Below are positions 20,733 through 58,899 of a stretch of DNA of 64,000 nucleotides, in pieces. A model generated the notes under the pieces. That model was not told the DNA's origin and did no database searches. It saw only the letters and a list, made by a program, of their open reading frames with translations. Location of the stretch: assembly GCF_038025025.1 (NCBI RefSeq), contig NW_027117343.1, positions 1,612,001 through 1,676,000 of the forward strand. Reading direction: 5' to 3'. Within the stretch, counting starts at the first letter, position 1. Each line of letters begins with the position of its first letter. The position numbers were made by a program, and so were the translations under genes. Source of the stretch: Phyllosticta citribraziliensis (Eukaryota).

Positions 20733-20754
20733 GTTCAGTAGCTACGGTTCCATC

Positions 20755-21006: not shown

Positions 21007-21161
21007 CTTTTGCCTCGAATCGTTTTGATGCGGCAACACGTCCGCACCACCTCGAGAGCTGTGATGCAACCGGATTGAGCCAAGGAACAATATAAAAATC
21101 GAGCAGAAGAATATCCTAGACGAGCCATTGTCAGTTTTCAGATTTACGACGTACACCAACA

Positions 21162-22307
21162 ATGCCTCACGCTGCATCTCCCGAAGTTGAATCAAGCTGG
21201 CCCGGCGCCAAACTCTTTGTCAATGATGGCCCCTTGGAAGCCTCAGAAGTCGCCCCCTTGAAAAAGTCATACCCCTCAGAGCCCATTGAAGAGCTTCGGA
21301 AAAGGTACAATGAGGATGGCTACATCTTCATGAAGGGCCTCATTCCTCGGGAAGACGTCTTGAAGGCTCGGGAAAGCTACTTCAAGGGGCTCGCACCCAG
21401 CGGTGTCCTCAAGCCTGGAACCAAGCCCGTCGAGGGCATCTTTGACGACGCCAAGGATCGCCTCAACTACCCGGGCATTGGGGCGGGTGCCGCTTCAGGC
21501 AACGGCCGTCCAGGCGGCGAGTCGGCCGAAGTTTTTGTTGATCTGGCGTTGAAGCAGCACACTGAGCCGTGGTATTGCGAGGAGTTTTCCAAACACCCGG
21601 CACTGTATGACTTTATCAGCAAGTTGACGGGGTGGGGCAACGACACTCTGTCGCTCAAGCGGACGCTGCTTCGGAACAACACGCCGGGGAACAAGGCCAT
21701 TGGCGTGCATTACGACCAAATCTTCCTCCGCTACGGCGAGCCGACTTCTGTGACGGCGTGGGTCCCCATGGGCGATGTCAGCGTCCAGGGCGGCGGATTG
21801 ATTTACATGGAAGACGGTAAGTCGCTGCTCCCATCTCCCGTGCTTGTCTGACGTCTTAGGCCACAATGTCGGACAACGAATCGAAAACGAGTTCACCGAA
21901 AAGGCCAAGGAAAACGGCCTCACTGAAGAAGAGGCCAAGTACGCCTTCAACAGGAACATGATGTCGACCGGATTCCTGGCCGAAGGTCCAGCTGGCTTTG
22001 GTCGTGAACACGGCGCAAGGTGGCTGCTGACCGACTACGAGGCGGGCGATGCTGTGCTCCACCAACCGCATTCTGTACGTGTGCCTGTGGGGTTGCCGTT
22101 CGTTTTGCTGACCATGCGTCTAGATCCACGCCTCGACCATCAACCACGACCCGCAAAACAAAATTCGCGTGGGAACTGACCTGCGATTTGTCAACTCGGC
22201 GCGTCCCTATGACAAGGTATGTGGCCAAAAGCGTGCGATTCAAGGCTCAACCTGATGAAGTTTGACAGAGGTGGACCAACTATTTCCAATTCAACGACGG
22301 CGTTTGA
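21162..22307 (+). CDS. Phytanoyl-CoA dioxygenase (PhyH) family 2OG-Fe(II) dioxygenase; introns 21818-21860, 22075-22123, 22217-22268
   Basis: Y..DGY, facial triad VHYD...IHAST, TAWVPMGD...GGL.Y, YEAGD.VLH, R.GTDLRF (2OG-binding Arg). Spliced C-terminus ...PYDK|RWTNYFQFNDGV*. Confidence 0.9.
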
Positions 22308-23754
22308 CGACGTGACGGATTTTTCCTTTTCCGATTCTTCGTTTGGGCACATGACGCTTGGGTCACGAAATTTTGCAAATTACAAGAGGCGATATCATGA
22401 GGGTGCTCGGAAGATCCGTAGTAGACGGCCGAAGAGCGTGCGACCGGATTCTTGCTCTGTGGTTGTCATAGCGCACGCAGAAAGTTTGAACAGAGCTTCG
22501 AGAATGCTTGACACTTCAAGTAGGCCTGTGCGCCTCGTGGGCGGAGTGACGAAAGTTCTTTCGCGCATCGTCGGGCGCGTCCGCTTTAGTTAGATTGTTG
22601 AATAATACACTTTGGATTTCTTCCTTTCCGTGTTTGGTGGTGGAAACAAGGCTGCTTTCGATAGTCATCTATCTGCAGTCTGGCCAAGATGTCCCGTGAC
22701 CGAAGGAGAGGTCAAAAATAGAAGCGATAAAGACTTGCGAGAGTTGCGAAAGCGAAAAACTCCAATTTGAGTGAGCGCCATTCAACCTTGCGAAAGAGGT
22801 GACCCGGAAAACTACAAGACGTCTGCGCAGCAATCAGCGCAACAGCAAACAGCGCGGGCGCGAGCGGCAAACGCGATGACAAGAGGGTGGAGAAGTTTCG
22901 CTTGGCGGCAGTTTGGGAGGGTCAACAATATATTGTAAAAGCCGACGAACAAACAAGGCGGGATCGAGTGTGGTGTTGATTGGGAGCGGCTATGCCCGCC
23001 CGCGACAGCACGGTGGGCGGACGAGCACCCAGCCACGTGACCGACCGCTTGCGGACTAGTCCGAGTCGGGCAGTCACCTAGCGGCTGCATGGGCGCAAGC
23101 TTCCCGGTCATCGACGTTGGGTCGCTGCGAACCCAAAGGAACAAGCGCCCATTTGCGCGCGGCACCAGCCAAAGCCTTTCTGTCTTTTCACTTCGCCCGC
23201 GCGGCCGCGTGAGGCCACATGCTCTGTCTCCTTTCTTGAAAGCGGGGGCGTCTGAGTCGAGGTGCTGAGGTCGATTTCACGGCCTGCCCAAGCTCTTGCC
23301 GTATCAAGGGTCTTTCCGGTTTCAACTTCGGCTGGTGCGCGGCACACTCTCGTGGGCTTCTCATCTCGAGCGTAAATGTGTTGAACGTTCACAAGACCGG
23401 CAGACGGACCTGATGGCGGCAGGGTCCCCCTGGATCGTCAGCCCTAGCCGTCGTTGATGCCCCACATCAATCTCGACTGGGCAGGCAGACCTTGTCCATT
23501 CAGTAATCTAAAATTTAAGAGTTCAAAGGCCATTCTCACTAGATTAAGACAATCGACGCTGAAGATCAGTCCCCAAAGGTCCTTTCACTGGCAGCAAAAA
23601 TAGCAATGTTTATGAAGATATTCAAATTGATTTCTCGAGCATAGTAGCAACGAAGAATTGTCTAACACGCCATTACTACCGCCATGTGTTTCGAAGTGGG
23701 CGACTGGTCAAAGAACAAAAAGGGAGTTTCGCAAGACCGTCCGAAATGCAACCC

Positions 23755-24515
23755 TTAGTTCTTCGAACCAGATCCAGAGCCAGAGCCAGAGCCAGAGTCA
23801 GAGCCCTTCTTGGGGTTGGACGGATCCGTGGGGTAACGGGCGGATGGCGGGCCAACGCGCCATTCAACGTCGACAGCCTGGATACCGTTGTACTCATTGT
23901 CGTCGTCGCAGGCCATGACACCCTTCTCGTTGACGAGCTGCTTGTAGCTGCCCGAAACTGAGACATAGCCTTGCTGAGAGTGCAGATTGGCCGAGTCCTC
24001 AAGCAAGTTCGAGACATCCAGGTTACCAATAGCAGCGCGCTGGTCCTTGGCTCTGGCAAAGAAAGCGACTGGAAGAGTCAGTAATAGATCAGGCCTAATG
24101 CGTCAGAGAAACACTGACCGGTCTTGTAGCGGACAATCTCACGGCCCTCGGTGGGTATCTCCCATCTGTGCGAGCCCTTTGCAACGCTTGCGGCGAGCGC
24201 CAAAGCATCCTCCTTGGTGGGCAACTTCGTCCCCTTGCTCGTATCAATCGGGACCGGGTCGAACGAAGAACTACCGCAAAGGTTCTTCCCTTCCGTTTCG
24301 CCACCAGGGCCGGGGCGGCCGGCGCGGTCATTCGGTCTACCACCGGGCGAGACCGGATTGCCTTGAGAGTCCTGACCGCCTCCTCCAGAAGTACTCGCAA
24401 GACTGACGGATTGCTGATTGTTTTGCTTGTTCTTACGAGCTGCGGGGCCGAGGGCCTCTCCTGCCAGAGCGGAGACAGGCAGCAGCGAGGCGATGAAGAG
24501 GATGTCGAAACGCAT
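23755..24515 (-). CDS. Secreted Ecp2/Hce2-like effector; intron 24069-24118
   Basis: Signal peptide MRFDILFIASLLPVSALA and G-rich pro-region, then CGSSSF...P..ED...W....R.IV.YKTVAF...IGNLDV..LL.DS...V...G.MAC...V.W, matching the Hce2 domain pattern. GS-repeat tail encoded by (CCAGAG)n. Confidence 0.75.
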
Positions 24516-27441
24516 GTTGAAGAATTGGCGTTCTGGTTATTGGATCTTTTTTGTAGAAGCGAGTGATGCTGATGTGACGGACTGAGAGATCTAGTCAGGG
24601 CAGACGCAACGTATATATACTCGCAAAGGCTAACCATAGACGCAGTGACTTGCCAAATATCAAATTAGAAACCATCAATCAATACTGGCAGTCAGTCGCC
24701 GTGGTCGAGAGCCAAGGCGTGAAGAACGTTATGCTTCCGAGTTTCTAAACGCTGTCAAGGTTTAGCTCCTTGCAAGCGACAGGCAGCATCGCTGCCGCGC
24801 GCCGGCATCTCGCAGCGGACCTGGCCACTAGAACACCGCCCGAAAGTCGGTAGCAATTCTTTAGACTTCGTCTTCTGGCCTTGTCTCATTTTCCACGGAG
24901 TCTGGCGGAAGCATGTTCAGGCCACCCCATCGATTTAGCCTGTCCTTTTCGTTGGCCTATTCAGCCTCAACCAAGCACCAAGGTACCAAAGTATTTTTCT
25001 GCGTCTTGTTGGCCTACTCGACTGGCCGAAGAGAAAGTAACGGTGTTGTGATGAGCTTGGACGCCACACCTCGGCTGCCCATGGCCTATTTGGTTATGCA
25101 TTCTTTGCAGCGAAGTGCTTCGACCGTCGGTGGAAATTGGTCGCGATGCCGACTGCAAACGCATTTGCCGCTGCGACATGAACACCTCAATACCGGTAGG
25201 GCTCGCGGGACGCTGCGGCACCTGCCGCCTACGCAGCAGTCGTGGGGCCACTTTTCTTCCGTGGCAATGCCTCCGCCCCTTGGTGAGGAGAGAGAGCAGC
25301 AACAAGGTACGCGGCCAAGCCGGGAAAGCAGCTAGTAGGCACGTATTTGCTGGCTTATTTTTGGACTGCCACGATGCCCCTGACTGATGCTGGCTGTACC
25401 GGCGATCCGAATCGTACTCTAGAAGAAATCTTATTTGCGTCGGGCTGGGCCAGCGCTTCGTAAGTAAGTATGCAATACACTGCGCCTCTCCTAGGCCCGC
25501 ACATGGCAATCCTCGGCGAAGGATATTGAAGTCTGTGCCGTCATCACATCAGGCTTGGACAGTCTTGTCCATCGAATTGGTTGCTTCATCCCCTTGCCTT
25601 CTGCGAGGACGGGAATATCGTCCAGGGATTGTCGACAACAGATGGTCCAGCTTAGTCTTGCATCGAACGAGGGGTCGGCTTCTCCGCATATTCCGGTCAA
25701 CAGCCACGGAGATGGACTGTCACGAGGCCGCAACCATCGCCTGAATGAAGCATCTGGCTGGTAAATCCACGAGCGTCTCGGTGCGGCTATGTGCGCGCCG
25801 ATGCTCCGCAATACACGTTGGTTTGACGCCGCTTCTGCCGCTGGTGGACCCGTGCTTACGGCTTGCCGTTGCCGTGGGACATATTGAATTCTCGCGGCTG
25901 GTGATGCAGTCTGACATCGGGTAAATATTTCGATTATGTTTACTCACGGCTCGAGCCTTGACCGGAGACTGTTTTCAGTTTCGAGTACGTGATTGCTTCA
26001 GTTCCAGTGGACCAAAGACTCGTACTGCGTACCGAAAGCGTCCACGGGAATGGGTGATTATTTTGGGTTTCTGTCGACATGAAGACTTCGGTCCGCACAA
26101 AGACTCAACCGCCAAAAGCATGGTAGGTTTGACGCGTGCTATGGCAAGATACGGTTGAGCGGAGATGCAAGATTATACCGTCTATTGACTCTTCCCATTT
26201 GCCTAGAGTCTGTCAGCGACTTTGGTGTAGCTGTTGCGAGACTGTGACTGTTGAGGCGCATTTCATCATCTTGGAGTTTCGACTCACCATCGTTGGCGAC
26301 GTGACGGAAATTGTCCGCTCTCTCTTATCAAAGTTGTGAGCAAACCTTTGGCTTCCTGGAATGCATGCTGGTTGGGCGAGAAGTCGATCACTCCTAACTG
26401 ACTTTCCTTTGTTCGCTGCGTGCTCTCTGTATCGTGCGTCGACTTGGTTGCGCCACCAAGGGGGAATTCCAGGAAACCTCCATTGCGCAAATTCTCTGCA
26501 CGAGTAGGCTCCTTGTCGCAACAAACGGGCAGGCGAGAGCATAAAACGACGTTCAACGTCATGAAAGTTCCCGGTCGCGCCCCATCTTCGGTGGAAATGA
26601 CAGCCCTAATAGAAATCTTCTAGAATCCCACTGGCGTCTTTCGCCCAAAAGACCCTTTTTCGCGTTCAGTGATCGGCTATCACCGCATGCGGCCGAGATG
26701 ACCTGCCAATCTCTTGGTCGAATGGTGGGAATCCAATTTTGTTAAGCTTGTGCCACCACGCCGCGAGGCCAAGAGCGTGGGAGGACCTGCCTCCGGTCAC
26801 GTCAAGTTCCGCGCAGACAGAGACTATCCACCAGCACGCGTCTTCGTCTTGCAGTTTGGCCAACGACCAAGCCCGGCGGCGCCTGGTCGCTGATGAGGCG
26901 TTGAAGTCAAGTCGTTGGTCGGCTGCATGCGGCAGAGAGGCGCCACATCACCAAAATAACTTGAGCCACACGAGCTGTCGACAATTTTGAGTTGCTCTGC
27001 TCGCAGGACTGGGAAATGCTGAAAGTAGCATATTCCGCTCCGTTTTTAGACTATTGACGGGGCAATGTTGCTTCTGGCAAATTTTCCTGCTGTGGTTGCG
27101 TTAGCAGCAAGACATCGAACGTGAGCGCCTCGAATCCCTCGCCTCGCGCCCTGAATGACAGAACGATCCTTGGCCGCTACCACAAGCGCGCTAGCCTGAT
27201 CCGTTCGCATATCTCGGCATCTCAGCTCCTCCAGTGGAAGGTGATTGTGTCAACACTCGCAGTGGACGATGAGAGGCAAGTCTGGCTCGGCTGGTCCTGT
27301 GGGGTCCATGAGCGGAACCAAGGTAGCCAGTGTTGATGATGAAGACCAGGCGGACAGGTCCTCCGACTGTCCCTACGTTTCACGTTCGATACTTCCTTCT
27401 CCGCTCGCTGAATCGTTGGAGTGAGTGGGCTTTACTTCATC

Positions 27442-29124
27442 ATGCACGTTGCCCTGCTGTGGCTTTCTGTGTCGATACTTCAACCACTGTCGGTCTCGGC
27501 TACGTCTGCAAGCTCGACACTGGGCGCAAATTCGACCGATCCTCTGAGCACTCTTCTGTCGATACCAGAATGTGGTGTAGGTAGCTGCAGCTCCGTCGAA
27601 GCTCTGGCTAATGAACTGCAGCAATCGTGTGTCATTCGAGGCGTGGACTTGAAAACAGACTGCCAATTGACGAACGCAACATGTCTCTGTGCATCGAAAC
27701 CTCTCGAAGAGTGGCTGGTTGACTGTTTGATGGCAAACTGCAGTGTCAAAGATGCCCTGAGTGAGCGCCTACAACGAGGACATCGAGGCTCATCCTGACA
27801 TTGCGCAGTGACCAAACGTATCACGGCTAAGATCTGTGACTTGCCAGTCAGGGATATTGGGTACATAATGAGTTGGACCGGTGGTGTCGGCGGGCTCGTA
27901 GCCACAGTGATGGTGGCATTGCGGGTTCTTTACCGCATGCCATTTCTGGGAGGAAGCTTCTGGCTGGACGACCTGTTTGTCCTGTTTCTTCTCGTAAGTT
28001 GGACCGACGCAGAGGATGACTGACAACTCACATGCTACCAGTTCTCCCTGATCCCGCTCTCCATCCTTTCATTCTGCAGTGAGTTCATCCAATCTTTCCC
28101 ATCGCAGCGACTCACGAGGATGCAGTCAACCACTTTGGTCTCGGCCGCGACATTTGGACCGTCTCGTTCGCCCACATCACCGATGTGCTCCACATAACGT
28201 ATTGGGTCGAAATCCTCTACACGCTGTGCCTGTACTTTGTCAAGACCTCCATCCTGCTCTTCTACCTGCGAATATTTCCGGACGAGCGCTTCAGGCGATG
28301 GCTGTACCTGAGCCTCTTGCTGTGCTTCTTGCATGGCGCCGGCTTTGGGTTGGCGGTCGTGTTTCAATGCTGGCCAATCAGTCATTCGTGGACTGGCTGG
28401 ACGCGGGAAGAAAAGGGAAAATGCATCAACGTCAACGTCATGTTCATGGTGAGCGCGTACGTGCACATTTTCCTTGATCTGCTGGTCCTGATGCTGCCAC
28501 TGCAGCAGCTGGCCCAGCTGACACTGAACCGATGGAGGCGGGCTCGGGTCATGTTCATGTTTTTGGTTGGATCGTTGTGAGTGGCCCTCCTTTTTGCCTA
28601 GTGGCAGACACTGACAGGGCGCCAGCGCAACTGTCGCCTCCTGCATTCGCATCAAACACATGAAGGTCCTCGGTCGGTCCCACAATCCAACTTGGGACTA
28701 TGTCCCCGTCGGCTATTGGTCAACCATTGAAGTAGACACAGCCACCGCCTGCGCCTGTCTTCCCGCCGTGCGCGCCCTCATCTACAAGGTGTTCTTCCCA
28801 CAAAGTATGAGCGACACACCCGAGGAGATGGACAGGTCGAGGTATACCATGCCCGGCTTGCCTCGGAGCGATGGGATGGACGGGAAGCGAGCAGCCGCAA
28901 ACGACAGGAGGGATACGTGCACGGAGATGGGAGTAGAGTTTTGCGAGAGAAAGGGCAACAGAGAAGACGAAGGCGAGACACAGACGCAAGTCCAGCGGGT
29001 GGTAATACGGCGAAAGAGCGACGAGAGGAGCGAGGCGGCAATCTTGCCAGTGGAAGAAGACTTTGATGAGGAGCGCAGCGACAAGTCGTCCTGTTGGGGA
29101 GCAGCCGAGGGAAGCAACCGGTAG
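27442..29124 (+). CDS. CFEM-domain PTH11-like G-protein-coupled receptor (rhodopsin domain); 5 introns
   Basis: Signal peptide; 8-Cys CFEM (IPEC|QSC..C..TNATCLC...C...C...C); then F.LDD, GLGRDIW, KTSILLFYLRIFP, FQCWPI..SW, HIFLDL..L.LP, S..R, WS.IEV...CACLP. Confidence 0.9.
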
Positions 29125-29886
29125 GGCGCGAGGAGCAGTGTGGCGAGCATTTGCCGGTTGCATACATACACATCTCAAGCTGTGAGGCTGTCCACTTTTT
29201 TTGACTCGTGGCATGGTGATGGATAGCCTTGCAGCTGTCGTATCAGTTCTCGTCGGGGAAACTTTTGGCGCTTAACTCAAAGTCTCCTGGAGAATGGCCG
29301 AAATAGGATCCGAAATGGCGAAGCAGCACTGTTCCCATTCGCGCGGTCCGCGATTGTCGTCACGTCGGTCTCGGGTTGTCGCGTCGTCCGGATGGTGCAG
29401 TCTGTCGAGCAGTTGCGCAGAGTGTCGTCGGATAAGTCCCGTCGTATTCGCGTGGTGGAGGTGGCAGTGGGCGCTTGGGCACTGCAGGTCGTCGCAGACA
29501 GATGACGTCAAACCAACATCCAACCTCACAACACCGAAAACGACGACAACAGCTTCTCCATCTCTCGCGACGACGACTGCTGGTCGCCGGGGCCGCATTG
29601 GGGCTCCCTCCCGATGGCCGCTCCGGATCTGTCCGCCCAGGCCGGCCGCCGACGCCAGATCGATCTGAGGCTTGCTGAGGCTTGTCTCCATTCAGCAGCC
29701 CTCGTCCCTTGCCAACCAAAGTCATGACGCACATCAGACCTCCAAGCTCGGCTGCTCGCCCTCACGCCAGTCTGCCCTCGTGCTGTAACCCTCCTCCCTG
29801 ACAGCCGTCACTGTCGAGCTCTGCAACAAACGCGTCTTTGTCTTACGCGCATGAAACGACAGACCAGGTCGCTGCTACCCACCACC

Positions 29887-32010
29887 ATGGCCAAGGACGG
29901 GAGGAAGAAGGTGTTGGTCGTAGGCGCTGGTGCTGCAGGTCAGTCAATCCTTGAGCGCGTAAACTCTCCGCTGACGGCTGCTTGACAGGCATGGCCTGCG
30001 CACACCACCTCGCCGAGCATCGCGACAAGTTTGACGTGACCCTCATCGACAGCGTCGACTACTGCGGCGGACAAGCCTTTTCCATTCCTCTGGACAAGAA
30101 CAAACATGGCGCGAGCTGGCTCAACCAAGGCGTACAAGGCGGCAGCTACATTTTCCACCACACAATGACCATGTTTGCACGCCAGGGCTACCAGGCGAAT
30201 CCGGTCAAGCTGCAGGTGTCGTTTGGGAAGGACGACACCTTTTGGACCAACGTGTACCCCACGAAGCTCATTGAGAAACACCAAAAAGAGGTGCAACGGT
30301 TCTTCAAGATGCTTGGGATCATCCGGGCTTTGGAGGTCTTTTTCGTGCTCTTGCCCATCAAGTATCTCTTGAAAATCTTTCGTTTCTCCTACGAATTCGC
30401 CAACGTCGTGGCCCTTCCAATGGTGGCGCTTTTCCTCGGCACTGGCAACCACACCCCCGAAGTACCCAGCATAATTCTTGAGCGACTTTGCACCAGTCCG
30501 ACTTATGGAATGTGGTATCCGCCAGACAAACACAGCATCATTAGCAATCTTCCGCCCATGGTAGTGTTTCCGAACTTTGGCGAGTTTTACGACAGCTGGC
30601 GCAAAAGCTTGGAGGCGAGAGGGGCGACTGTAAGACTCTCGACGGAGCTGGTCGAGGTGGTGAAGAGGGATAAAAAGGGCGTCAAGGTGCGGCTGATGAA
30701 GCGGACACCAGCACCAGATGGCCACAATCCAGCCAGCGCCGAAGCACCAGAAGACCCCAGCAGCAACGCCGATGCCGATGCGCCCAAGGAGGAGGAGGAT
30801 TATGACGAGATTGTCATCTGCACTCTGTATGTTCCCAGCTCTCAGAAATGAATGTAGCTAACAGCATAGCGCCGACACCACCAAACGCTTACTTGGCAAG
30901 ACGGCCTCTTTGCGCGAGCGCTTCGTCCTTGGTTCTGCCAAATTTGCCGACGACATCACCATTACACACAACGACGCAGACTACATGCGCAAGTACTACC
31001 AAACCTCCTACGACCCGTCAACCGCCGTGCGCACTTTGGCTGGCACCGACCAGTCCTCACGCGTCGACTTTGCCGCCTCCAACTTTCGACCAATGTATCT
31101 CATCAAGTCGTACCCAGCAGACGTGTCCAAGATTGAAATGTGCTTCGACTGCACCCACTATCAGGCGCAATTCCCACCATCAACGCCGTATTCCTCGCAC
31201 GTCTTTCAAACCATTTTCCTCAATAACGACCGCGACCGAGGCCTGTGGACGGACAACGAGATTGATCCGAGCAAGATCATCCGCAAGGACTGGTGGCACC
31301 AGCTCTGCCACGGCTGGACGCACTACGCGCGCGTAGTCTCTTGGCTGTGGGCACTGCAAGGGCGTTGCCGTACGCGCTTCGCCGGGTCCTGGACGCTCGT
31401 CAACGCCCACGAGACGGCTGTCATTTCGGGCATTGCTGCGGCGGTTGACCTTGGCGCCGCGTACCCAGAGGACCTCGAACGCGACAGGTTTGCTTTGCTG
31501 GCCTTCCGCTGCTACTACGCGCTCGTGTATGGCAAGTGGTATCGCCGGAAAGCCAAGAAGCAGGGCGAGGGCGAGCAGTGGGCTAGTGGCGTGTACGGCA
31601 GCGTCTACAAGGGTCCGGGTGTCGTGGAAGAGGAGCGGAAGATTTGGCGGAGTGAAGTCGACAGCGGGCGCAGTTTGAGCGAGGAAGAGGTGGGTAGGAT
31701 CCTGGGCTCCGACAAACCTGCGGAGCAAGCGGAGCCGACGGGAGATGCCGAGCCCGTCTTGCCCGAGGCACCTGTGCAAAGTTCCCATACGAACGGCCAC
31801 GGGCTTGGAAATGGCCATGGCAAGGCTGAACTTGTACTCGGCAAAAGTAACGGCCAAAGCGAGAACCCGAAAAAGGACAGCGCCCAATACCAAGAGCGTG
31901 ACGCGGTCTTTGGCAAAACAAATGGGTTGAACCTCAACGGCACAAAGACTCAGCAGACTCGGCCAAGCGCTCCCGTTGAGCAGTGGAGCTTCTACGGCAC
32001 CGACGAGTGA
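29887..32010 (+). CDS. FAD/NAD(P)-binding flavoprotein ('flavin-containing amine oxidase'/COG2907-like); introns 29939-29988, 30827-30869
   Basis: Rossmann KKVLVVGAGAAG|MACA, YCGGQA (GG motif), C-terminal LQGR.RTRFAGSW...AHE.AV.SG..AA..LG; low-complexity tail. Confidence 0.85.
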
Positions 32011-32173
32011 TCGCGATCCCATCGGAGGAGATTGATGAAGTTGGTTGAGCATTTACAGGGTGTTTATTACGTACCTATTTCATTTTCTCCAAACTTTAAT
32101 CTGTCGTCCCAGATGTTCCCGTTCAGCCGAATTGTTTTCCGCAGCAGGCAACCAACTTCATCTTCGGTCGATG

Positions 32174-32229
32174 CGCCGGGGCCTCGGGGCCTCGGGGACT
32201 CGGGGCACCGGGACCTCGAGACCTCGGGG
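32174..32229 (+). repeat. 8-bp minisatellite (CCTCGGGG) x ~7
   Basis: Units CGCCGGGG, CCTCGGGG, CCTCGGGG, ACTCGGGG, CACCGGGA, CCTCGAGA, CCTCGGGG at an exact 8-bp period. Confidence 0.85.
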
Positions 32230-33417
32230 CCAGACATCCATGGAACCGAAGCCAACACGGTCGAAGAAGCCCGTCAGCTATGGCAATGGAAAATCATCGA
32301 CTCGCTTTTCTCTCCAACCTCGAATGTATGCGGCGGGGTCGTACACTCGTGTCCGAAGCTCTTTTATTCGCGTTTCCCATGCTCTATACAGGCGCCTGGA
32401 TCTACTTCATGTTTTGATAATCTGGATTTGCCACGAAAGATCTCGATGAAGTCTGCGAGACTGACTGCGCAAGAAGAAGCTGAACAAAGCGGACGAAGAA
32501 ATGAAAGACTCACCGAACCAGTGTACTTGAGGCAAAGCTCAACGGTGATCGATCCAGTCGAAATTGTCGCGCGAGGTCAGCTCTGGAGTTTGTTATCCGA
32601 CTGATCCAAAGGCGCGAAAGACGAGCAAACTGGTGTTGAAAGAGAGTGCAACACGGGTTCAGTCATGATGGCCGACTGGAACGAGACGCAGCGTTGCAAT
32701 CCTTTGACCTACACGTCAGTGTTTTCCGATTCCCTTGGCCCAAAAAGCAGAATAGGCGTGATGGACGACTTCAAGGCAAGCACGTGAAAGAAATGCTCAT
32801 CCGGACAGCCCTGCAGCCTCTGCCTGATAGACCGAGCGACGGTGCCTCATGTCCCCGACTGCAGTTAACATACGTACCTTGAAACTCCGAGCTCCAAAAC
32901 TCCGACCAAGCTCCTGACGTGTTGAAAGCCAATCGAATGATAGACCCCAATTGACCAAGCAGGCCGCTGAGCAAAATGTTTGCGAAAGGCCGAGCAATTT
33001 GATACCGTGGTGCCTCAGCGGCTGCTTTATGCAAGCGCGCTTTGCTTTGGCAAGCCGATGCAAGACTCGGTGAGAAATGCATGCGGCTCATGTCGCTGAA
33101 ACGCGGTTTGGGGGTCGAGCTCCGCGTTTCTTACAGTCCGGCGTGCTCTGAACAAGCAGGCGCTCGGAGCTTAAGAAGAGCGTTTGTGTTGCTGGGAGCG
33201 GCCCCCAAATCCATCGTCACCCAAACCCCTCGGACTTCGGTCTCGGTCTGCTCTGCTCCCTTCTTGCATCCATCCCTGCCTGGCATTCCGCGGAGGCTCC
33301 GCGGAGCACAACGTCGACCTCCTACCAAACATTTATATTTGCGCCACCATGTGTTCACTTCATGCTGTCACGCCCTTCTCTTTGTCTCCCATGGCATCAA
33401 AGTCACATCATCTCAAA

Positions 33418-34371
33418 ATGGCTGCACGACCGCTTTTTGCTTCACGCGTCACCAAAGTCGCCGCCACGTCCGCCGCAGCCAGCGCCGGCTTTTTTGCATT
33501 TAACCGATACTCCACGCGAACGGTTTACGCAGAGTCTACCTCGGAGCCGCAGAAGACTTTTGCCAGCGGCTTCAAGTTTACGTCGTTGCGGCTGCACAGC
33601 AGCGAGGATATCAGCACGGATCTCAAGCGGCTGCGTTTCGAGCTCCCGGATCCACAGGCGCAGAGCGGCATGAAATTGACGTGTGAGTTTAGCATGCAAC
33701 GTTGAATCTTGGAATACTTGCTGATTTACAATACAGCATCATTGGCGACAGTAATCAGACGGCCAGGCGGAATCCTACCCATGTTCCGCGAATACACGCC
33801 GGTCAACGATCCCACCGACGCCGGCTTCATCGACCTAGTCGTAAAAAAGTACCCCAACGGACAACTCAGCTCGCACCTGCACGCGCTCTCGCCAGGGCAG
33901 ACGCAGCTCTTCGCCGGCCCGCTGACGCGCTACCAATGGAAACCCAACAAGCACCCACACGTCGCCATGATCGCCGGCGGCACCGGCATCTGCCCCATGT
34001 ACCAACTACTCCACGGCATCTTCAAGAACCCGGCCGACACGACCAAAGTCACGCTCGTGTGGGGCGTCAATCACGACGCGGAGATTTTCTTGAAAGACGA
34101 GCTGGATGCGCTGCAGCGCCGCTTCCCGGATCGCCTGAACGTCGTGTATGCTGTCAGTAATCCGGCGCCTGGCTCGCCGCATGCTAAGGGCCGCGTTACG
34201 AAGGAGCTGCTGGAGAAGGCGAATCTGGGCGCGCCGGATAAGTCGACGCAGCTCTTTTTGTGCGGACCGCCGGGCATGGAGGCTGCGGTGGCTGGGAGCT
34301 GGAATTTTGGCTCCAAGGATGGCATTTTGAGGGAGTTGGGTTATGTGAAGAGTCAGGTGGAGCGGCTTTGA
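33418..34371 (+). CDS. NADH-cytochrome b5 reductase (Mcr1-like, probable mitochondrial-type leader); intron ~33683-33737
   Basis: R/S/A-rich leader, KRLRFELP, REYTP (RxY[TS]), VKKYPNG.LS, IAGGTGICPM, LCGPPGM, GIL.ELGY. Confidence 0.9.
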
Positions 34372-35650
34372 AAGAATCGGTCGTCGTTGAGGGGATTGCG
34401 AAGTTGGATTTTCGATGCTGAGAGGCGTGGCGGAAAGGCGCGTGAGGAAGAGATGGTTGGTCAGGTCAGATCATATCGAGCGGCAGGTATAGCCGCTCGT
34501 GGTTGGGGCTGCAACGTGCCCGCTCGTCTTTGAGGCCGATTCTGTGCTCAAAGCAGCAGAAGTCGTGGGCGAAATACCAGCCGAGAGCCCAGGTTCTCTA
34601 GGGCAGAGCTCCTGTGATAGGCTCTTCATTTTCCTCTCACATCGAACGGCGTTTTGGGGCCAAGGGCAAGACCCGGTGGAGTTACACGGTTTGGACAGTC
34701 AAGTCGAGTTGGATTAGAGGTAGTGCTCCCTTTTGGCAGTAATGAAGACGACGAGGTAAACTTACCTACCATACTCCCGGGTCCGTGAGGTGATTCTGTC
34801 TCCCTGCCTCTCTCCGCGCAGCCCTCAGGCAAAAGGCAAAAAGAGAACAAACAAATATCGTCAGGCCTCGCCCGGAATCGAACAGAAGGCAGCTGTTGTA
34901 GATTCTAAGCGAGTTAATAGATAACGCCATTCCTCAAGATACGTCGACCGTCGGACGCATCCTGGTTCCGGTGCTAGATGATCTCGCTTTAGTAAATTAT
35001 ATGGCCGCCATTTTTGGACTTTGGAGGATGATGGATCTTTGGGGTCTTGTGTCGTTTTCCCCCTGTGATCTGTGCTGAACTTGGAATTGGAACCTCGTCT
35101 TTAACGAGTAGGACTCCTGACAAAACGCGCTTGCGCCCGCACCTTCGATTGCTTGTTTGCTTGCTTTGAGGTCTGAGGCAGTCTTGTCGTCTGGACAATT
35201 CTCTTGTTTCCTTTGTACATTAGAGCTTTATTATCGCTGTCTTGCGCACCTTGCGCCCCTTGCGCCCCTTGCGCCATGAACACAATCAAGCTGTTTTCAC
35301 AGTGTCTTCAGTCGTCATCAGCTCCACTGTATCACAGATGCACGCATGTCTCCGGTGATAGCAGCAATCTTCAAGGCACCAATAGCGGAAAATATGTGAA
35401 AGCATGCTGCGAATAAAAGCATCATTGAATTCACTGGACGCCCCTGTTCGGTCAATAAGGTGTGTGAAGGGTAAATGACGAAAAAAAGAAGGTGCATTGA
35501 GAACCCCGCTGCTCTTCATCTCCCATCCTATTTCGATAACGCCGTACTTCAACGCCAGCTCAGAAAAAAGAACGAACGTCCTGCCTCCTGACTCCCAAAT
35601 ACCGACCAGTCAATCTTGAACAACAATCCTGTCCGTGTTCATCATAGCAT

Positions 35651-37512
35651 TCAGTCGCCCTTCTTCCTCTCCGTCAAGACCAGGTGCAGCGGCGGCAGAA
35701 GCATGGTAAAGGTGTCCATGGGCCCCTCGTCGAACGCGACGCCAGTCTCGCCCGGCGCAAAGGCAAGGTCGAAGCGCAGCGCCAGGCGGCTGAGCACGCT
35801 GCGCATCTCCATGTACGCGAGATTCTTGCCTGGACAGGCGTAGGCGCCTGCATCGTAGCGTTAGTCGTCAGTGTCAAGAACGTATCACATAACTGTATGT
35901 AACTAGAAAAGGGAGAGTGAACGTACCTCTGAGGAACGGCAAAAAGGGCACATTCTCCGAATTGACGTCGACGCCCTCGAAGCGCTCGGGCTTGTACGTG
36001 TCCGGGTCTTCCCACACCCGCGGATCGTGGTACAGCGACCATGTCGGCACGCTGACAATGGTGCCGGCGGGGATGTGTTCGTCTTCGATCTGCAGCCCGC
36101 CGGCCGGCACCTCGCGCACGAGGCCCTGAATGGCAGGCGTCTTCATCCGCATCGACTCGTTGCAGACGTGGTCGATGTAGGTGATTTTGCGGGCCTCTTC
36201 GTAGCTCCAGTCGGCGTCGCCGTTGGGAAAGGCCTCATCGACGAGGGCTTGTAGTTTGCGGTAGACGTGCTGGTGCTTGGTGAGGTAGTACAGGACGTTG
36301 CCGAGGGCGCCGGACGTGGTGTCGGAGCCGGCGACGATGAGCAGCACCGAGTCCTCGTCGAGACTCGTCTGCGTCTGGCGCTGGGCCGGCTCGCTCGTCT
36401 CGCGCGCCGTGATGAGGTGCGACGCAATGTCCGTTGGCACCTGGTCGGGATGCCACGAGGCCTGCTTCTCGCGCATCTTGTCTTTGCACCAATTCATGAA
36501 GATGCTGTAGTCGCCGGCCATATCGGTCTGCGCGAGCATGCGAATCATCCACGGTACCGAGCTCAACACGCCGACCATCTTCAGGGCGGAGTGCATGTGC
36601 GAGATTTTGGCTTCCTTGCCGTCGTCCGATTCGATCGTCCCGTGTCCCTTGGCTAGCATCTTGAAGTCACGTCCATACGCAAGATCGCCCATGGCGTCGA
36701 AAGAGAAGAAGGACATCCAGTCCGTGGTGTTGATGGGCTGCCCCTGCCGCGCTAATAGCTGATCGAGAAGTAGGTCCACCTTGGCTCTCACGCGAGGCTC
36801 GTAGCTGTTGAGAGCTTTGATGCTGAGTCCGCGGTCCATTTTTCGTCGTCTCCAGGCATGTTCTTGATGGTTGCGAAGGGCAAAAACATTGTGGTCTTCT
36901 TCCGCGTACACTTTGGCTTGCGAGTAGAACGTTGACTTTGTGCATTTTGATTTTGCACCGTAGATGAGGGGAATAGCAGAGGGCTTTAGAATGGACAGCT
37001 CACGGGGTCCTTAGCCCGTTGTCAGACTCTGAACCAGAGCGCGAGAAGCTGTGCGGAGCCTTACCAGTTCGAACAATGTCCCCGTACTCTTCGTGCATCT
37101 TCCTGATGTCTTTGTAAAGCTGGTTGCCGCTCCTGACTTGCAAAACCATGGTGTAAAACTTGGTAATCTTGGCAAGGAACGGGCCGGGATACTTTCTGAG
37201 CGGGGAAAGAAATAGACGTTGGACAATGATGCTCAAGAAGAGGCCAAGAAGTGTTGCCCAGGAAAAAAGAACTGCACGGAAAGCAGCGGCAATCAGACCC
37301 AGCTGGCTGAATCGGGCTTGGAGGACAGCGACTGTCAAGATGAGACCATTGAACATTGCGGTGAGAAGCCAGCCGTGGTGGTCAAGTTCAATGGATTGCG
37401 TAGAAAGGTGGAAGAGACAGCCCAAGATGACGCCGGACCAGGGCGAAAGCATTGCTAACGGCGCTGGGCCTGGCATGTCTTGGGGCACGCTGCTGGAAGA
37501 CGTGACATTCAT
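35651..37512 (-). CDS. Cytochrome P450; introns 37010-37064 and 35848-35926
   Basis: N-terminal TM segments, PL..YPGP, YGDIVRT|GPRELS, AGSDTT (I helix), ESMR (ExxR), PERF, heme motif PFLR|GAYACPG. Confidence 0.95.
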
Positions 37513-38977
37513 GATGAAGAGAGGAGCGTAATCATTGAAAGGAGAATACAGCGGTGCGCGATAAGTATTTGAAGATCAGGGAGAACAGGAGTCAGACTTC
37601 AGCTTAACTCTCAGCCAAGTCTCCGTATGTCGTACAGCTTCTTGGCCAGTGAGTTGAAGATGACAGACTTATGCAGGACGGACGATACACGGACGTGCCA
37701 GCCTTATGAATGCAGTTCCAAGCCCCGACCAAGCCAATGCTTAAACAACAGCAATGTGACAACCGCGTCACCAGTAGACCAGCCTGTGGGATACTTTGCT
37801 CTTTCGACTTGTTGCGAAATGCGCGTTTGGACGAGCTCTATCGGTGTAGCCGACGTGCAGATCCATGGCTAGTGCGCCGTTCTGCAGTTCGCAGGGCTCG
37901 CTGTCACGCCCTAGACAATCAAGGTTAGAATTTGAGCCAAATTGCTGACGAGCGGACTCAGGGGCAGGGTGGTCCTAGTAAATCGTGATGCACAGGAAAA
38001 ACTTCGGGAGGGAGCGGGAAGCCCCAAATCCAAATGAGTTGGCGGGCATGAGGGGAAAATAGATGGCCGCGACATGCTTGCCTGCCTAGGCGCCAGGCGT
38101 CTACTCGGCTCTGAGAAGTTTGTCAAAGCCATCCCGCGTCAAATCTGCGCACTTGTTTGGTTGCTGTTGATATGGCAAGCTTTTGGTTGTGACTGGCACT
38201 TCGCCAGCTAACATGACGTCGACTTTCGAACGGGTTGAATCTGTCGCTCATGCAGGAAAACATTGCATTTTCCCCAGCAGCCTTGAAGCCGAGCGCTCTT
38301 CAAGTTGGCGGGCAAACGTGTTCCCCAAGTTGGACAGGGTCGAAACAGGCGGTCTGGTACGGTCGCGAGCTAGGTATATGGACTGCATTACCCTAAAGCT
38401 TCGTACCTAAGGCCAGCGCGGTGAATTGATGATTGGGCGCTCGGTTTCGCATTAGCAGAGCCTGTCCCCGCATTTCTTTCGCTGGGTGAGTGTGGGGAAG
38501 CACGGGCCGTCCCTCGGAAGGACATAGTAATCATCGAGATGGCTTGGAGGCCTCGAAATCGAAGACGGCGACGCGAAGTGTGGTGTTGAGGTTTGAGGGG
38601 TCGGATTTGGCGACGCTCGCAAAGTCCGAGCCCCGAGGATTGGTGGACGTCACGTGCCCGTCGGATTTAGCGAGTCGCCCCCACTTTGTCCAACAACCAC
38701 GACCGTTGCCGTGGCCATGATTGATGTGACACCACGACGCCCTTTTGAGGCTTCCCCGTGCGTCGCGTTCTTGCCGGACTACCGTTCTGCCGTTCACCAT
38801 GTCTGTTCGGACGTTCTCGTCGGACTTGCTCTTCTTTCGGCAGGCGGTTCGGCATGAACACCATTCGGGACCACTTCAACATGCGCGTATTTAACATGTC
38901 CAAAAGGCGGGATATCCAGCAGGGTTTCAGCTTCAGCCCTGGGTCAGCAACAATCACTGCAGCAAATCCACGCGAGA

Positions 38978-41155
38978 ATGGAAACGCTCCGCAAATCCTT
39001 TCCAGACATTGAATTTGTCAAGGTGCCACCACCAGAATGTCATCCAGCATATGCATACGCGGGCTTCAATCCATCCGAAACGATCCTGCCAAAGGGACAC
39101 GTCAGGAAGCCCGGTCGCCGTCCGTTTGGCGTTGAAACAATCTTTCAAAGAGACGCCGCGGTAAAGCTCCGCGATGGCGTAAACATCTACGTCGATGTCT
39201 TTCGACCAGCAAACACGAGCAAAGACAACAGGGTGCCAGCCGTCATTGCGTGGAGTCCGTACGGAAAGACTGGTGGAGGTCAGCTTGTGAGTTGCCAGGC
39301 ATCCTTGACCCGCTCTCATTTTCTCAGGTGTTCAGAATTATGACATGATGGGGCCATTCCGTTGCGGCTTGCCGTTGGACAAAACTTCGGGATACGAGAG
39401 TTTCGAGGTAAGCGTCTTTCGACGATTTTGTGAAAGGTCATCATTCTCATCGCTTCCAGGCGCCATGCCCTGCCGAATGGGCAGAGCGTGGCTACGCTAT
39501 TGTCAATGCGGATGCTCGCGGTGCTGGGGCTTCTGAGGGCGAAATCATGTTCTTTGGCCAACAGGTAAATGTGGTTTCACTTGCAAAAAGGATTTTCGAT
39601 ACTGAGCCTGCCTTCAGGAAGCTGAAGACATTTACGACCTCATCGACTGGCTTTCTCAGCAGTCCTGGTGCTCTGGTGTTGCCATGGCGTAAGGGTGCAC
39701 TGATTCCACGCGTCGCATTTGCTAATTGCCAAAACTCCAGGGGCAACTCATGGCTCGCGATAGCTCAAGTCAACTTCATCTCCCGTTTCCATCATCCGTC
39801 CCTGAAAGCTGTAGCTCCCTGGGAGTCTTTTACGGATTCGTACCGAGATCCCGTGGCTCGTGGAGGCATTCCGAACACGGCGATGACAAATATGATTCTC
39901 TCCTCATTTGCTGGTTGCAAGCTCTCTTATCTGCGAGCACAAGCTCCCATGCTGACTGCCACGCAGGAACAAACAGTGTCGAAAATCAGCCAGGAGCCAT
40001 TGCGCATCGACCTTTCTTCGATGATTACTGGAAGAGTAGCGTTGTTGACATCTCGAAGATGCCACGCAAAGACCTCCCTATGTATCAGACGGCGTCCTAC
40101 TCGTACGAAGAAGCCCAACATCCATTTCCCGAAAGTGTGCTTACATGCGATCAGGACTGGCCTCCACTCTCGTGGTTCCTTTGAGATTTTCGCAAAAGCC
40201 CCAACGACAAAGAAATGGCTGCGTGTACACAATACCCAAGAGTGTCAGTAAGGACCGTGGGTAAGCTGAATAATGCTGACGTCCACAGGGTACGACTTTT
40301 ATCAACCCGAGGCGAGTGACGACTTGCAGCGATTTTTCGACTTTTATTGCAAAGGTATTGAAAATGGCTGGGAAAAGGACACTCCTCCACTGCGGCTCAC
40401 GTTGCTCGGATTCAATGGCGGCATGGTAAAGTCGATCGTTGAGCGCCCTGAGCAACAGTATCCTCTTGCCCGCACCAAGAACGTCAAGTATCATCTCGAC
40501 GCTTCCGAGAAGGTGGGAAATTTTGATCCCTCTGCTCAAGAGTCCTCTGCGACTTACGATGCACACAGTCTGGAAGGCTCTTTGGTGAGTACACTTCGAA
40601 GAACGCAAAAAAGTAGCTGCTGATTTGCGCCAGGATTTTCGAATCTTCTTCAAGAGCTACACTGAACTCTCCGGGTATCCCATCGTCAAGCTTTGGATGT
40701 CATGTGCTGAAAAAGACGACATGGACGTCGCGGTGCAGCTCCGCAAAATATCCAAAACAGGCGAACCACTCGTCTCCATCAACTACCCATGTCCGGTCCC
40801 CGACGATCAAGTGCCAGACGTCAACATCGCCAAGCATCTAGGACCGCAAGGAAAGTTGCGAGCTTCTCATTCTTGCACCAAGAGCTACGTTGGCGGTCGC
40901 CCGTTCTATGCCCACAACAAGCGAGAGCCGATCGCCCCGGGCACCATTGTTCCTCTGGAGATTCCCATTTGGCCCATCGGGATGGTGTTTGCTGAGGGGG
41001 AAGGACTCATGATCAGGGTAGCCGGACACGACTTGGGCTTACCAGAGGTGGAGATGCTCAAATTGAAAGAGCCGAACGACGAAAATGTCGGTAAGCATGT
41101 TGTGCACACTGGCGGCAAGTACGACAGCTACGTGGAACTTCCAGTCCTTTCTTAG
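38978..41155 (+). CDS. CocE/NonD family serine hydrolase (peptidase S15 fold); 8 introns
   Basis: LRDGV.IY.DVFRP, WSPYGK, GYAIVNADARG.G.SEG, nucleophile elbow AMA|GNSWLA, LKAVAPWE, LH.RGSFE, H.TQE|WYD, C-terminal domain ELSGYP..KLWMS...G.LRAS...HTGG.YDSY..LP. Confidence 0.9.
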
Positions 41156-41732
41156 CTAGTCGCGCTCAGTCTTTCGTTTCTCGTCTTTCCGTGTACAGGC
41201 GCATACTTTTTGGCGATGTCCGCCGTACTCTCCAACCTCGGCCAAAAACATTGGATTTTTTTGCCTTTTTCCTTTTGATTGTGCCGTAAAACCAGCAATC
41301 CTTGACATTTCATTCCTTCGAGGAAGCAATCTGCTACAGCAAAAACTTCCGAGGCAAATGGTGTTGTTCGCATCAACCAAAAACACGTTCTGCATGACCA
41401 ACTTACCGCTTATTCACGGATATTTCCGTCTGCGTATGTCGCCTGAAGAGGGGCCACTAACAACGCTTTCCTACCAAGAAAGCCATCACTGGGAAGAGGA
41501 GGCTTACACAGACTAAGCATTGAGGGCACGCGCGGCAGGGATCGTTTCCCCAGATGACATCGTCGTACATAATGCGGGGGGCACGTCCACAGCCGAGGGT
41601 TGCGGAGATAGAGACGACTGCACGGCCGCCGGCCACCAGCAACCTGTGTATTTCAGCCTCTTGTTCGTCTCACCATGGAGCCGTCTCCCAGTTCTGCTTG
41701 CAAGTCAGTTCCTCTCCTTGACCAGCAGCGCG

Positions 41733-43605
41733 ATGCCTTTTCTCGCCAAGGAGCACATTGATGTACCTACCAAGGATCTCTTGTCTTGGTACTTTGACAA
41801 TCCGCAATTTGACCACGACGACCCGGTCTATATCGATGCCGCAAATAAGGCGCGGTCCTACACTGCGCGACAAGCTCGCGAGATAATAGAGAGGCTCTGC
41901 GCGGGCTTCAAGGCTGCCGGGCTCAAGAAAGGCGACGTCGTGTGCTTGCACTCGTTCAATGACGTAAGACGCAACCGTTGAAGACCTGAAACACTTGTGC
42001 TCACACCCACGATATAGGTAGACTATCCAGTTATTGTGAATGGCGTCGTAGCGTTCGGTGGCATCTTTTGCGGCACCAATCCGTCCTACACGCCGTACGA
42101 AATCAAACACGCCATCAAGGCGGCTCGCGTCAACTTTTTCATCGTCGAGCCCGAGCTGGTCAAGAACGTGTTGACTGCCGCTGAGGAGAGCGGCATTCCC
42201 AAGTCGAATGTTCTGGTCTTTGAGAAGCCGGGCCAGGATGTTCCGCCGGGCATGAGGTCGTGGCGTACGCTGCTGGAGCATGGGAAGTCGGATTGGGAGC
42301 GCTTCGACGATTTGGAGACGGCGAAGAACACTGATGCCGCGCGGCTATTTTCGAGCGGGACGACGGGGCTGCCGAAGGCGAGTGCAAATCAAAGGATTAT
42401 CCTGTTCTCTTGATCATGTCTAACTGCTTCCTAGGCTGCCGTGATTTCGCACTACAACTTGATTGCTCAGTATCGCATGGTCAACGACTGGAATCCAAAA
42501 CCCTTTGCTGTGAGTACTGTGACAAACCCACCAAGGAGAAACCCAAGCTAAGCGTTCTCAGCGCTCAAATCTCGTCCCCATGCCATGCTTCCACGTCGCC
42601 GTCGCGCCAGGCGTGCACTTCTCTCCACTGCGCAACGGGCGCCCCTGCTACATCATGCGGCGCTTCGAACTGGAGCCGTACCTGCGCTACATGTCCGAGT
42701 ACCGCATCACCGACATGGGCATCGTGCCGCCCATCGCCATCGTGCTCATCAACTCGCCGCACCTCACCTCCAAATACCCACTCAAGCACGTGCGCTCCGC
42801 AGCGTGCGGCGCGGCGCCGCTGGACCGCCACGCGCAGGAGCGCCTGCAGCGCCTCCTGCCCCCCGACGCGCCCATCACGCAGGTCTGGGGCATGACCGAG
42901 ACGACGTGCATCGCGACCATGGTGCCGTACCCGACCATGGACGCCACGGGCAGCGTCGGCATTCCCTGCCCATCCCTCGACCTCAAGCTCGTCGACGACG
43001 CCGGCGCCGACGTCACGGGCTACGACGTCCGCGGCGAGCTGTGCGTGCGCGGGCCCACCGTCATCCGCGGATACCTGGGCGGCGTGGGACAGGACAGCTG
43101 GGACGACGAGGGGTACTTTCATACCGGCGATATCGCGTTTTGTAAGCGTGAGAATGGGTATTGGTATATCGTTGACCGGAAAAAGGAGCTTATTAAGGTG
43201 CGCGGGTTCCAAGTCGCGCCGCCGGAGCTCGAAGCCGTCCTGCTTTCGCACCCGTCCATCGTCGACGCGGGCGTCATCGGCGTCAAGTCGTCGACGCTGC
43301 AGTCGTCGAACACCAGCACCACCATCACCTCCTCCTCTGGCGCCACAACAACCGACAACGCTACCGAGCTCCCGCGCGCCTACATCGTTCGGCGGCCCAA
43401 CGACGCGGCGGCGTCGAAGTTGTCAGTCAAGGACGTGATGAGCTACGTTGCGGAGAAGGTGGCCAGGTATAAGTGGCTGCAGGGCGGCATCGTGTTTGTG
43501 GAGGCGATTCCGAAGAATCCGAGCGGCAAGATTTTGAAGAGGGTGTTGAGGGAGTGGGCGGAGAAGGAGATGAAGACGGAGGGGAGGGCGGTGGCGAAGC
43601 TGTAA
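41733..43605 (+). CDS. 4-coumarate-CoA ligase-like / phenylacetyl-CoA-ligase-type AMP-dependent ligase, peroxisomal (PTS1 -AKL); introns 41964-42017, 42378-42434 (GC-AG), 42510-42561
   Basis: FSSGTTGLPK|AAVISHYN, QVWGMTE, GELCVRGP, YFHTGD, IVDRKKELIKVRGFQVAPPELE, IPKNPSGKILKR, C-terminal AKL. Confidence 0.93.
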
Positions 43606-58721: not shown

Positions 58722-58899
58722 TGTTGAGGGCATGTCCTTCTGTCGTCTGTCTATAGATGCGTTGGTCAGTCGGTCAATCGGTTGACCCCAGATAAAACAC
58801 ATCAGTCCCGCCATGTAGTCCACGGACCACGAACTCTACTCACCCTACCTCTCTAAGAGAGACCACCGCTACTCTGTATCCATATAAACCAACTGAACT

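Follow-up and report, generated by a model that had tools for sequence, protein, structure and literature searches.

Five consecutive enzyme genes in a 64-kb window (64,000 nucleotides of contig NW_027117343.1) of the citrus-dwelling fungus Phyllosticta citribraziliensis raise the question of whether they make up one pathway or simply lie side by side. A first-pass annotation had proposed the former, a catabolic cluster in which a plant ester would be hydrolysed, oxidised and activated.

A run of five intact enzyme genes

All five genes are intact and stand in the order that annotation gave, flavoprotein, b5 reductase, P450, hydrolase and ligase; their introns are GT/GC-AG, the models contain zero internal stops and Pfam agrees with each of the family assignments. 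NCBI proteins from P. citribraziliensis, which may derive from the same genome, equal the hydrolase and ligase models exactly, and an NCBI P450, a record that may likewise derive from it, is a 555-aa suffix of the 575-aa model. Ten spacer, antisense or flanking ORFs of at least 120 aa were tested and none scored above the Pfam cut-off, no tRNA gene was found in the run, and the spacers yielded neither gene relics (tblastn with a protein set) nor an inverted repeat that would mark an inversion. The statement that no housekeeping gene lies between the five holds, because the canonical MCR1 gene is on contig C1. Cytochrome b5, transporter and regulator genes are absent from the run, and no core synthase was found within the 64-kb window. 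Such a run is not by itself beyond chance, since 3 to 38 runs of at least five enzyme genes are expected per genome, on the assumption of 11,000 genes of which 20-35% encode enzymes.

The hydrolase and the ligase

The reading that we favour, with a probability of about 0.5, is that the run is composite: the hydrolase and ligase would form a unit under FarA/FarB control for acid release and peroxisomal activation, the P450 would be an old neighbour in the block, and the flavoprotein and b5 reductase would be bystanders.

The hydrolase gene (38978..41155, forward strand; nine exons, 590 aa) encodes a CocE/NonD (S15) serine hydrolase, which scores 196 bits against TIGR00976 (cut-off 66), carries PF02129 and PF08530 and has the three-domain fold of that family. 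Its nucleophile, Ser189 in the motif GNSWLA, is invariant in 33/33 sequences, and the alignment alone offers His293 (33/33), His314 (33/33) and Glu318 (32/33) as candidate triad residues; there is no Asp at positions 284-292, where the triad order of cocaine esterase would place one. The protein is predicted to be cytosolic because it has no signal peptide or hydrophobic leader and no PTS1 or PTS2. Cutin- or suberin-linked esters had been suggested as substrates, but direct attack on the polymer-bound forms is unlikely, given that the enzyme lacks a leader and the run lacks a transporter; a secreted cutinase-like enzyme was likewise rejected. A metagenome scan with the hydrolase returned 10 loci at 31-38% identity, none of which held relatives of the other four genes, and no description of this locus, or of any substrate for this fungal S15 subfamily, was found among the papers listed by literature searches.

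The ligase gene (41733..43605, forward strand; four exons, 569 aa) encodes a 4CL-like acyl-CoA ligase with PF00501 and PF13193, whose best solved relatives are plant 4CL and luciferases and whose clade mates are proteins from Saccharata, Cercospora and Zasmidium. As the annotation had noticed, it ends in a PTS1 (AKL), which is kept as AKL or ARL in 5/5 Phyllosticta orthologues examined and is found at the C-terminal end of 77 of 106 long homologues.

Hydrolase and ligase have consecutive accessions, a proxy for gene order, in 6/6 named Phyllosticta species, although relatives this similar (83-95% protein identity) would be expected to share the adjacency in any case. The two genes need not occur together: Botryosphaeriaceae retain the hydrolase, yet none of the best 120 of 737 ligase matches comes from that family, and none of 69 hydrolase matches comes from Saccharata, which carries the ligase.

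FarA binds CCTCGG and controls fatty-acid and ferulate catabolism in Aspergillus (PMC5068947, PMC10512302). The motif was fixed before counting, and the 500-bp cut was chosen after the box positions were seen; within that distance upstream there are three boxes before the ligase, two before the hydrolase, one before the b5 reductase (at -163) and none before the flavoprotein or the P450, and one of the 12 other genes in the window has a single box. The ligase boxes, at 41236, 41349 and 41593 (-497, -384 and -140), lie in the hydrolase-ligase spacer (41156..41732), the first of them 81 bp past the hydrolase stop, where 0.23 would be expected (300 shuffles); only 1 of 178 control tiles held three. 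Those of the hydrolase are at 38512..38517 on the forward strand and 38633..38638 on the reverse, 466 and 345 bp before its ATG, and by themselves they are weak evidence, as the entire spacer that contains them is not enriched (2 against 0.81, p 0.21). Just 4 of 2080 hexamers occur at least twice before both genes, CCTCGG among them, and neither CreA nor CCAAT motifs were enriched in any of four spacers. Among positive controls in this genome, the isocitrate lyase (ICL) gene has two boxes, methyl-ICL three and two PEX11 genes one and two, whereas the hydrolase paralogue, the nearest P450 paralogue and MCR1 have none; of 11 ligase paralogues five have a box, one has two and none has three.

From these boxes we infer that hydrolase and ligase would be co-regulated by the fatty-acid regulators FarA/FarB (CTF1). 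A small lipophilic ester or amide, once in the cell, would be cleaved in the cytosol by the hydrolase; the freed carboxylic acid, perhaps medium-chain fatty, branched or aryl-alkanoic, would then be converted by the ligase to its CoA ester in the peroxisome and enter beta-oxidation there. Of the route first proposed, the hydrolyse-then-activate portion fits the pair, through its adjacency, PTS1 and boxes, while the five-gene version is not supported, the b5 reductase being of Mcr1 type with a mitochondrial-type N-terminus and the P450-hydrolase linkage being shared with an alpha-galactosidase.

The alternative that stands up best, though we think it unlikely, is that no functional link exists, the five being accessory enzymes, each under its own regulation, that happen to share an unremarkable stretch of synteny, the ligase one more FarA-controlled peroxisomal ligase and the hydrolase boxes a product of chance. 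This would agree with the expected frequency of five-enzyme runs, with the equally linked but unrelated alpha-galactosidase, with the differing distributions of P450, hydrolase and ligase, and with the 12 of 178 control tiles that hold two or more boxes. It sits less easily with a joint motif signal before two adjoining genes whose chemistry runs end to end, and with the box-free hydrolase paralogue.

The P450 and the upstream neighbours

The P450 gene (35651..37512, reverse strand; three exons, 575 aa) is transcribed divergently from the hydrolase gene, as had been claimed, across a spacer of 1465 bp (37513..38977) whose two boxes both lie toward the hydrolase. Its product has PF00067, the motifs AGSDTT, ESMR and FLRGAYACPG, and hydrophobic N-terminal segments. 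By convention, a protein belongs to a CYP family if it is 40% or more identical to that family's named members; the P450 is 38% identical to a single protein designated family 628, and in the tree that protein sits apart from the Botryosphaeriales clade. By resemblance the P450 would be CYP628-like and of the CYP574 clan (PMC8955511).

Wherever a Botryosphaeriaceae species has both genes (7/7), P450 and hydrolase are on one contig, and in six of the seven their accessions differ by exactly two, at a P450 identity of only 43-49%; fragments of both also occur on a single 6,976-bp Logan contig, and the trees track species groups. The linkage is nevertheless largely block synteny, since an unrelated alpha-galactosidase 13 kb downstream, the sole GH27 gene found in this genome's assembly, stays linked too in both species (n=2) where this is visible, as in Macrophomina (P450 EKG11942, hydrolase EKG11944, alpha-galactosidase EKG11948). 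Calling clusters from contiguity is a trap, and conserved linkage has to be weighed against the surrounding block.

It is doubtful that P450, hydrolase and ligase form a three-gene module that oxidises, hydrolyses and activates one lipophilic plant compound from the divergent promoter, with a gene between P450 and hydrolase filling the third place in Botryosphaeriaceae. The two-accession spacing, the shared Logan contig, the low P450 identity at which the linkage persists and the trees speak for such a module, but block synteny can explain the linkage and no box lies within 500 bp of the P450. Moreover, none of 57 P450 matches places a Neofusicoccum protein in this clade, although that genus has the hydrolase, and in Lasiodiplodia theobromae at 37 °C the inferred P450 gene g8560 is down 3.3 log2, while g8561 and g8562 do not appear in the table of annotated changed genes. 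Contig C6 carries no copy of the nitronate monooxygenase gene that neighbours this block in L. theobromae, and for the gene between P450 and hydrolase in Botryosphaeriaceae, such as EKG11943 or KAF4541324, full-text searches by accession and locus returned no mention and the supplementary tables searched no row. More speculative still, and improbable, is an order-wide Botryosphaeriales module of P450, intervening gene and hydrolase, joined in Phyllosticta by a FarA-controlled peroxisomal ligase and degrading an ester or amide of the woody host (a defence compound or lipid signal), whose hydrolase would be the first fungal protein to be given a function in a large S15 subfamily with His and acid swapped. 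The P450 is a candidate member of the hydrolase-ligase unit. In the composite reading it would be an old neighbour that the conservation of the surrounding chromosome block has kept in place, and its electrons would probably come from the usual P450 reductase.

The two remaining genes are probably bystanders. The flavoprotein gene (29887..32010, forward strand; three exons, 676 aa with a low-complexity C-terminal tail) encodes an FAD-dependent oxidoreductase of the amine-oxidase fold (PF13450/PF01593), whose Atlas neighbours are without exception PF01593 and whose match to LkcE is weak (E 0.009); it has one match in this genome's assembly, an exact look-up of two of its exon frames found none, and the only link seen to the other genes is position. 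The b5 reductase gene (33391..34371, forward strand; two exons, 308 aa; PF00970/PF00175) encodes a second Mcr1-type NADH-cytochrome b5 reductase, 57% identical to the contig C1 MCR1 product against 36-37% to two other reductases. It is not the housekeeping gene, the conserved MCR1 being separate. Its first 47 residues include seven R/K and no D/E, a mitochondrial-type presequence, and in 5/5 sister-species assemblies showing both it lies 6-7 accessions from the P450 (accession order again standing in for gene order). The expectation that it supplies electrons to the P450 is hard to maintain on these grounds, and the two are not neighbours in the sister species; the linkage of P450 and hydrolase does persist in Botryosphaeriaceae.

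A full five-gene cluster in which the reductase feeds the P450 and the flavoprotein adds an oxidation is thus very improbable, for although the genes are contiguous here, the reductase has a box and cytochrome b5 with its reductase can reduce some fungal P450s, the separation in sister species, the mitochondrial-type leader, the lack of a b5, transporter or regulator and the box-free flavoprotein all count against it; a hidden five-gene pathway is not supported.

Comparison with known systems

The b5 reductase resembles mitochondrial Mcr1 in its FAD/NAD domains and basic, acid-free leader but, unlike the conserved copy on contig C1, is a diverged second copy. The hydrolase shares the three-domain fold, the nucleophile elbow (Ser189) and the oxyanion Tyr95 with Staphylococcus aureus SACOL2612 (3IB3/3III), Rhodococcus cocaine esterase and the alpha-amino acid ester hydrolases. 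SACOL2612 (3IB3) is its closest solved relative, at TM 0.82 against 0.66 for cocaine esterase and 30% identity against just 18-19%; a true cocaine esterase was rejected. It differs from these relatives in that no invariant Asp follows the strand on which the acid is usually found. No record of a substrate for SACOL2612 was found, and substrates of the relatives are not transferable to it.

PhlA and PhlB of Penicillium are fungal peroxisomal 4CL-like ligases, and ACTT5 and AzaF act in polyketide clusters. The ligase shares its AMP-binding domains, PTS1 and 51-58% identity with proteins named ACTT5, EpaB and AzaF by automatic annotation; the polyketide setting differs, as the window holds no synthase.

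The nearest parallel to the pair is the FarA-regulated route of Aspergillus niger (FaeB, HcsA, FoxA and KatA) for releasing acids from esters and activating them with CoA, which likewise combines a hydrolase and a PTS1 (AKL) CoA ligase with CCTCGG boxes (PMC8140964, PMC10512302). It differs in that FaeB works on wall polymers, whereas our hydrolase is of the S15 type and lacks a leader, and in its thiolase KatA, which has no counterpart at this run. HcsA is described as a member of the very-long-chain/Fat1 family that is reportedly specific to Eurotiomycetes (PMC8140964); the ligase, whose best solved relatives are 4CL and luciferases, was rejected as its orthologue. Should the pair be real, it would offer an initial way into an S15 subfamily that is widespread in fungi, by linking it to FarA-driven peroxisomal beta-oxidation in a latent coloniser of woody plants. 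The hcsA-katA genes of A. niger are themselves a small pair with no core synthase (PMC8140964, PMC10512302). A hydrolase-ligase pair would be an ordinary sort of arrangement.

The gene run and its flanks

The five consecutive enzyme genes claimed in the first-pass annotation are all intact and spliced, and lie exactly within 29887-43605. They encode a flavoprotein (g1, 29887-32010, plus strand), a b5 reductase (g2, 33391-34371, plus), a P450 (g3, 37512-35651, minus), an S15/CocE hydrolase assigned to its family by profile (g4, 38978-41155, plus) and an acyl-CoA ligase with the C-terminus AKL (g5, 41733-43605, plus). The window (G000:C6:1612001-1676000) is mid-contig, away from contig ends, and the g4 and g5 models match NCBI proteins of P. 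citribraziliensis, described as an endophyte of citrus (PMC6859488), at 100%, although these records may derive from the same genome. A CFEM/rhodopsin-type receptor gene flanks the run on the left; to the right are genes for syntaxin-5, two large proteins that gave no match in a Pfam profile search, an alpha-galactosidase and a HET protein. A divergently transcribed gene pair at 18500-22330 encodes a transcription factor (Fungal_trans_2) and a dioxygenase of the PhyH family. The AT-rich, C/T-skewed interval between the alpha-galactosidase and HET-domain genes (58800-59500) may be a decayed repeat, and the minus strand of the g2-g3 spacer carries a short T-loop-like sequence (~34860-34890) in which ARAGORN found no tRNA.

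CCTCGG boxes and the encoded proteins

Three motifs (CreA, CCAAT and the FarA/CTF1 box CCTCGG) were fixed before counting, and four spacers were examined. CreA and CCAAT motifs occur at chance level in these spacers. CCTCGG occurs three times before g5 (0.23 expected) and four times before g2 (0.91 expected), three of the latter falling in an 8-bp tandem array (32177-32231, 6.9 copies) directly 3' of g1 and ~1.2 kb before g2; over the whole g3-g4 spacer it is not enriched (2 vs 0.81, p 0.21). Within 500 bp upstream, a limit set post hoc, g1 to g5 have 0, 1, 0, 2 and 3 boxes, respectively, and the other 12 window genes, some with approximate starts, have one in total. Among 178 control tiles, at least one box was found in 46, at least two in 12 and three in a single tile. 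Fatty-acid genes of the same genome gave counts of 2 (ICL), 3 (methyl-ICL) and 1 and 2 (PEX11), and a fifth control, an ICL-family gene, gave 0. Five of its 11 ligase paralogues (three starts extrapolated) have a box, one has two and none has three, and no box precedes the hydrolase paralogue, the nearest P450 paralogue or MCR1. The signal is good for g5 and modest for g4. FarA/B are reported to bind CCTCGG and regulate fatty-acid genes (PMC5068947; PMC4117967), and ferulate use in A. niger to be under their control (PMC10512302). A 19-bp near-perfect palindrome with CGG/CCG triplets, resembling a Zn2Cys6 site, lies ~90 bp before the g2 start (33287-33305).

The hydrolase g4 has neither a hydrophobic leader nor a PTS; its expected substrates are therefore small molecules of the cytosol, not wall polymers. 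Among solved structures its closest relative is that of S. aureus SACOL2612 (30% identity, TM 0.82), cocaine esterase being more remote (18-19% identity, TM 0.66). All 33 homologues compared have Ser189 and Tyr95; residues 284-292 contain no Asp, while His293 and His314 are kept in 33/33 and Glu318 in 32/33, and the catalytic triad may therefore be rearranged. A His/acid swap is possible in the triad of this S15 subfamily. SACOL2612 aligns in the same pattern over g4 residues 283-321, without Asp at the usual acid position. Elsewhere, a metagenome contig has two S15 hydrolase genes in tandem (L010:7113-10965), and in the Seiridium gene model P0066 the hydrolase is joined in one protein with a zinc alcohol dehydrogenase and a regulator of the C2H2/Fungal_trans type, a hint that the hydrolase has other neighbours in other fungi.

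The ligase g5, whose PTS1 is conserved, resembles 4CL and luciferases. Orthologues measure 565-569 aa in Phyllosticta and 542 aa in Saccharata; a Ser/Thr-rich insertion of ~25 residues lies in the C-terminal domain (~43290-43365). The P450 resembles those of the CYP628/CYP574-clan, and the only functional note found on such P450s concerns diallyl disulfide induction in Penicillium (PMC12546766). The reductase is nearer to MCR1 than to other reductases and has a basic leader without acidic residues; no cytochrome b5 gene lies within the five-gene run. The flavoprotein g1 has an amine-oxidase fold and matches LkcE weakly.

The reading we favour, at a probability of about 0.5, is that FarA/B would induce g4 and g5, g4 would split a small ester or amide, and g5 would activate the freed acid for peroxisomal beta-oxidation, with g3 a probable syntenic neighbour and g1 and g2 probable bystanders. 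The regulation, localisation and substrate of the pair are all inferred. Of the hydrolyse-oxidise-activate route first proposed for a plant ester, the hydrolyse-activate part is partly supported, for the two genes g4 and g5; the five-gene route is not.

Gene order in related fungi

Five enzyme genes in a row are not rare, because 3-38 such runs are expected per genome if 11,000 genes, 20-35% of them for enzymes, are assumed. That the five lack any functional link is rather unlikely. In Phyllosticta, where accession numbers serve as a proxy for true gene order, g4 and g5 orthologues have consecutive accessions in 6/6 named species.

A module of P450, hydrolase and ligase is more doubtful. The P450 adjoins the hydrolase or sits one model off in the five Phyllosticta species for which a single assembly shows all three accessions, and the two are linked in 7/7 Botryosphaeriaceae species with both genes, the P450 orthologue being assigned by tree clade. 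They are two accessions apart, with a single gene between them, in M. phaseolina, L. theobromae, L. hormozganensis, D. seriata, D. intermedia and B. dothidea, and share one contig in D. corticola; the exception is one B. dothidea assembly that places them 10 accessions apart on the same contig. However, Macrophomina and Lasiodiplodia share a conserved block with the source genome, as marked by the alpha-galactosidase (57069-58721), the only GH27 gene found there in the latter. EKG11948 lies six accessions from the P450 EKG11942 in Macrophomina, and in published supplements (PMC6928909; PMC6739476) g8567 of L. theobromae is listed as an alpha-galactosidase whose best match is EKG11948, and g8560 as a P450 bearing the orthologue's database name, from which we infer that g8560 is the orthologue of g3. 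The whole block, unrelated genes included, therefore appears conserved, and with this control the P450-hydrolase linkage loses much of its weight as evidence. Tight co-regulation of the two is weakly disfavoured by L. theobromae tables: at 37 vs 25 C, g8560 is down 3.3 log2 and g8567 down 2.0 log2, g8561 and g8562 are not among the annotated changed genes listed (1,059/1,580 annotated), and the 706 in-planta temporal genes listed include only g8565 and g8567 from g856x. The three genes also appear to differ in taxonomic range. The best 120 of 737 ligase matches include Saccharata and none from Botryosphaeriaceae; Neofusicoccum has the hydrolase, and no P450 of the linked clade from this genus was among 57 matches.

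A complete five-gene route is highly improbable, since the expected linkage of orthologues fails at the reductase, whose accession is separated from that of the P450 by 6, 7, 7, 6 and 6 in the 5/5 sister-species assemblies with both visible (P. citriasiana, P. citricarpa and P. paracitricarpa); no g1 orthologue was seen, nor a reductase from P. capitalensis or P. citrichinensis. The gap would fit an insertion, or an inversion from the transcription factor at 18-20 kb to g2. Upstream of g2, the interval ~18500-34371 holds the transcription factor, the PhyH dioxygenase, a small secreted protein, the CFEM receptor and g1, and were it inverted, these five genes would come to lie between g2 and the P450, an arrangement suggested by the gap in the sister species.

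Comparison with known systems

All protein families of the run are already known, and searches of open-access papers gave no account of the locus or of a substrate for the g4 subfamily. The putative g4-g5 pair has a precedent in hcsA-katA, a known FarA-controlled catabolic pair without a core synthase, but A. niger HcsA is assigned to the Fat1 family (PMC8140964), whereas g5 lies outside it.
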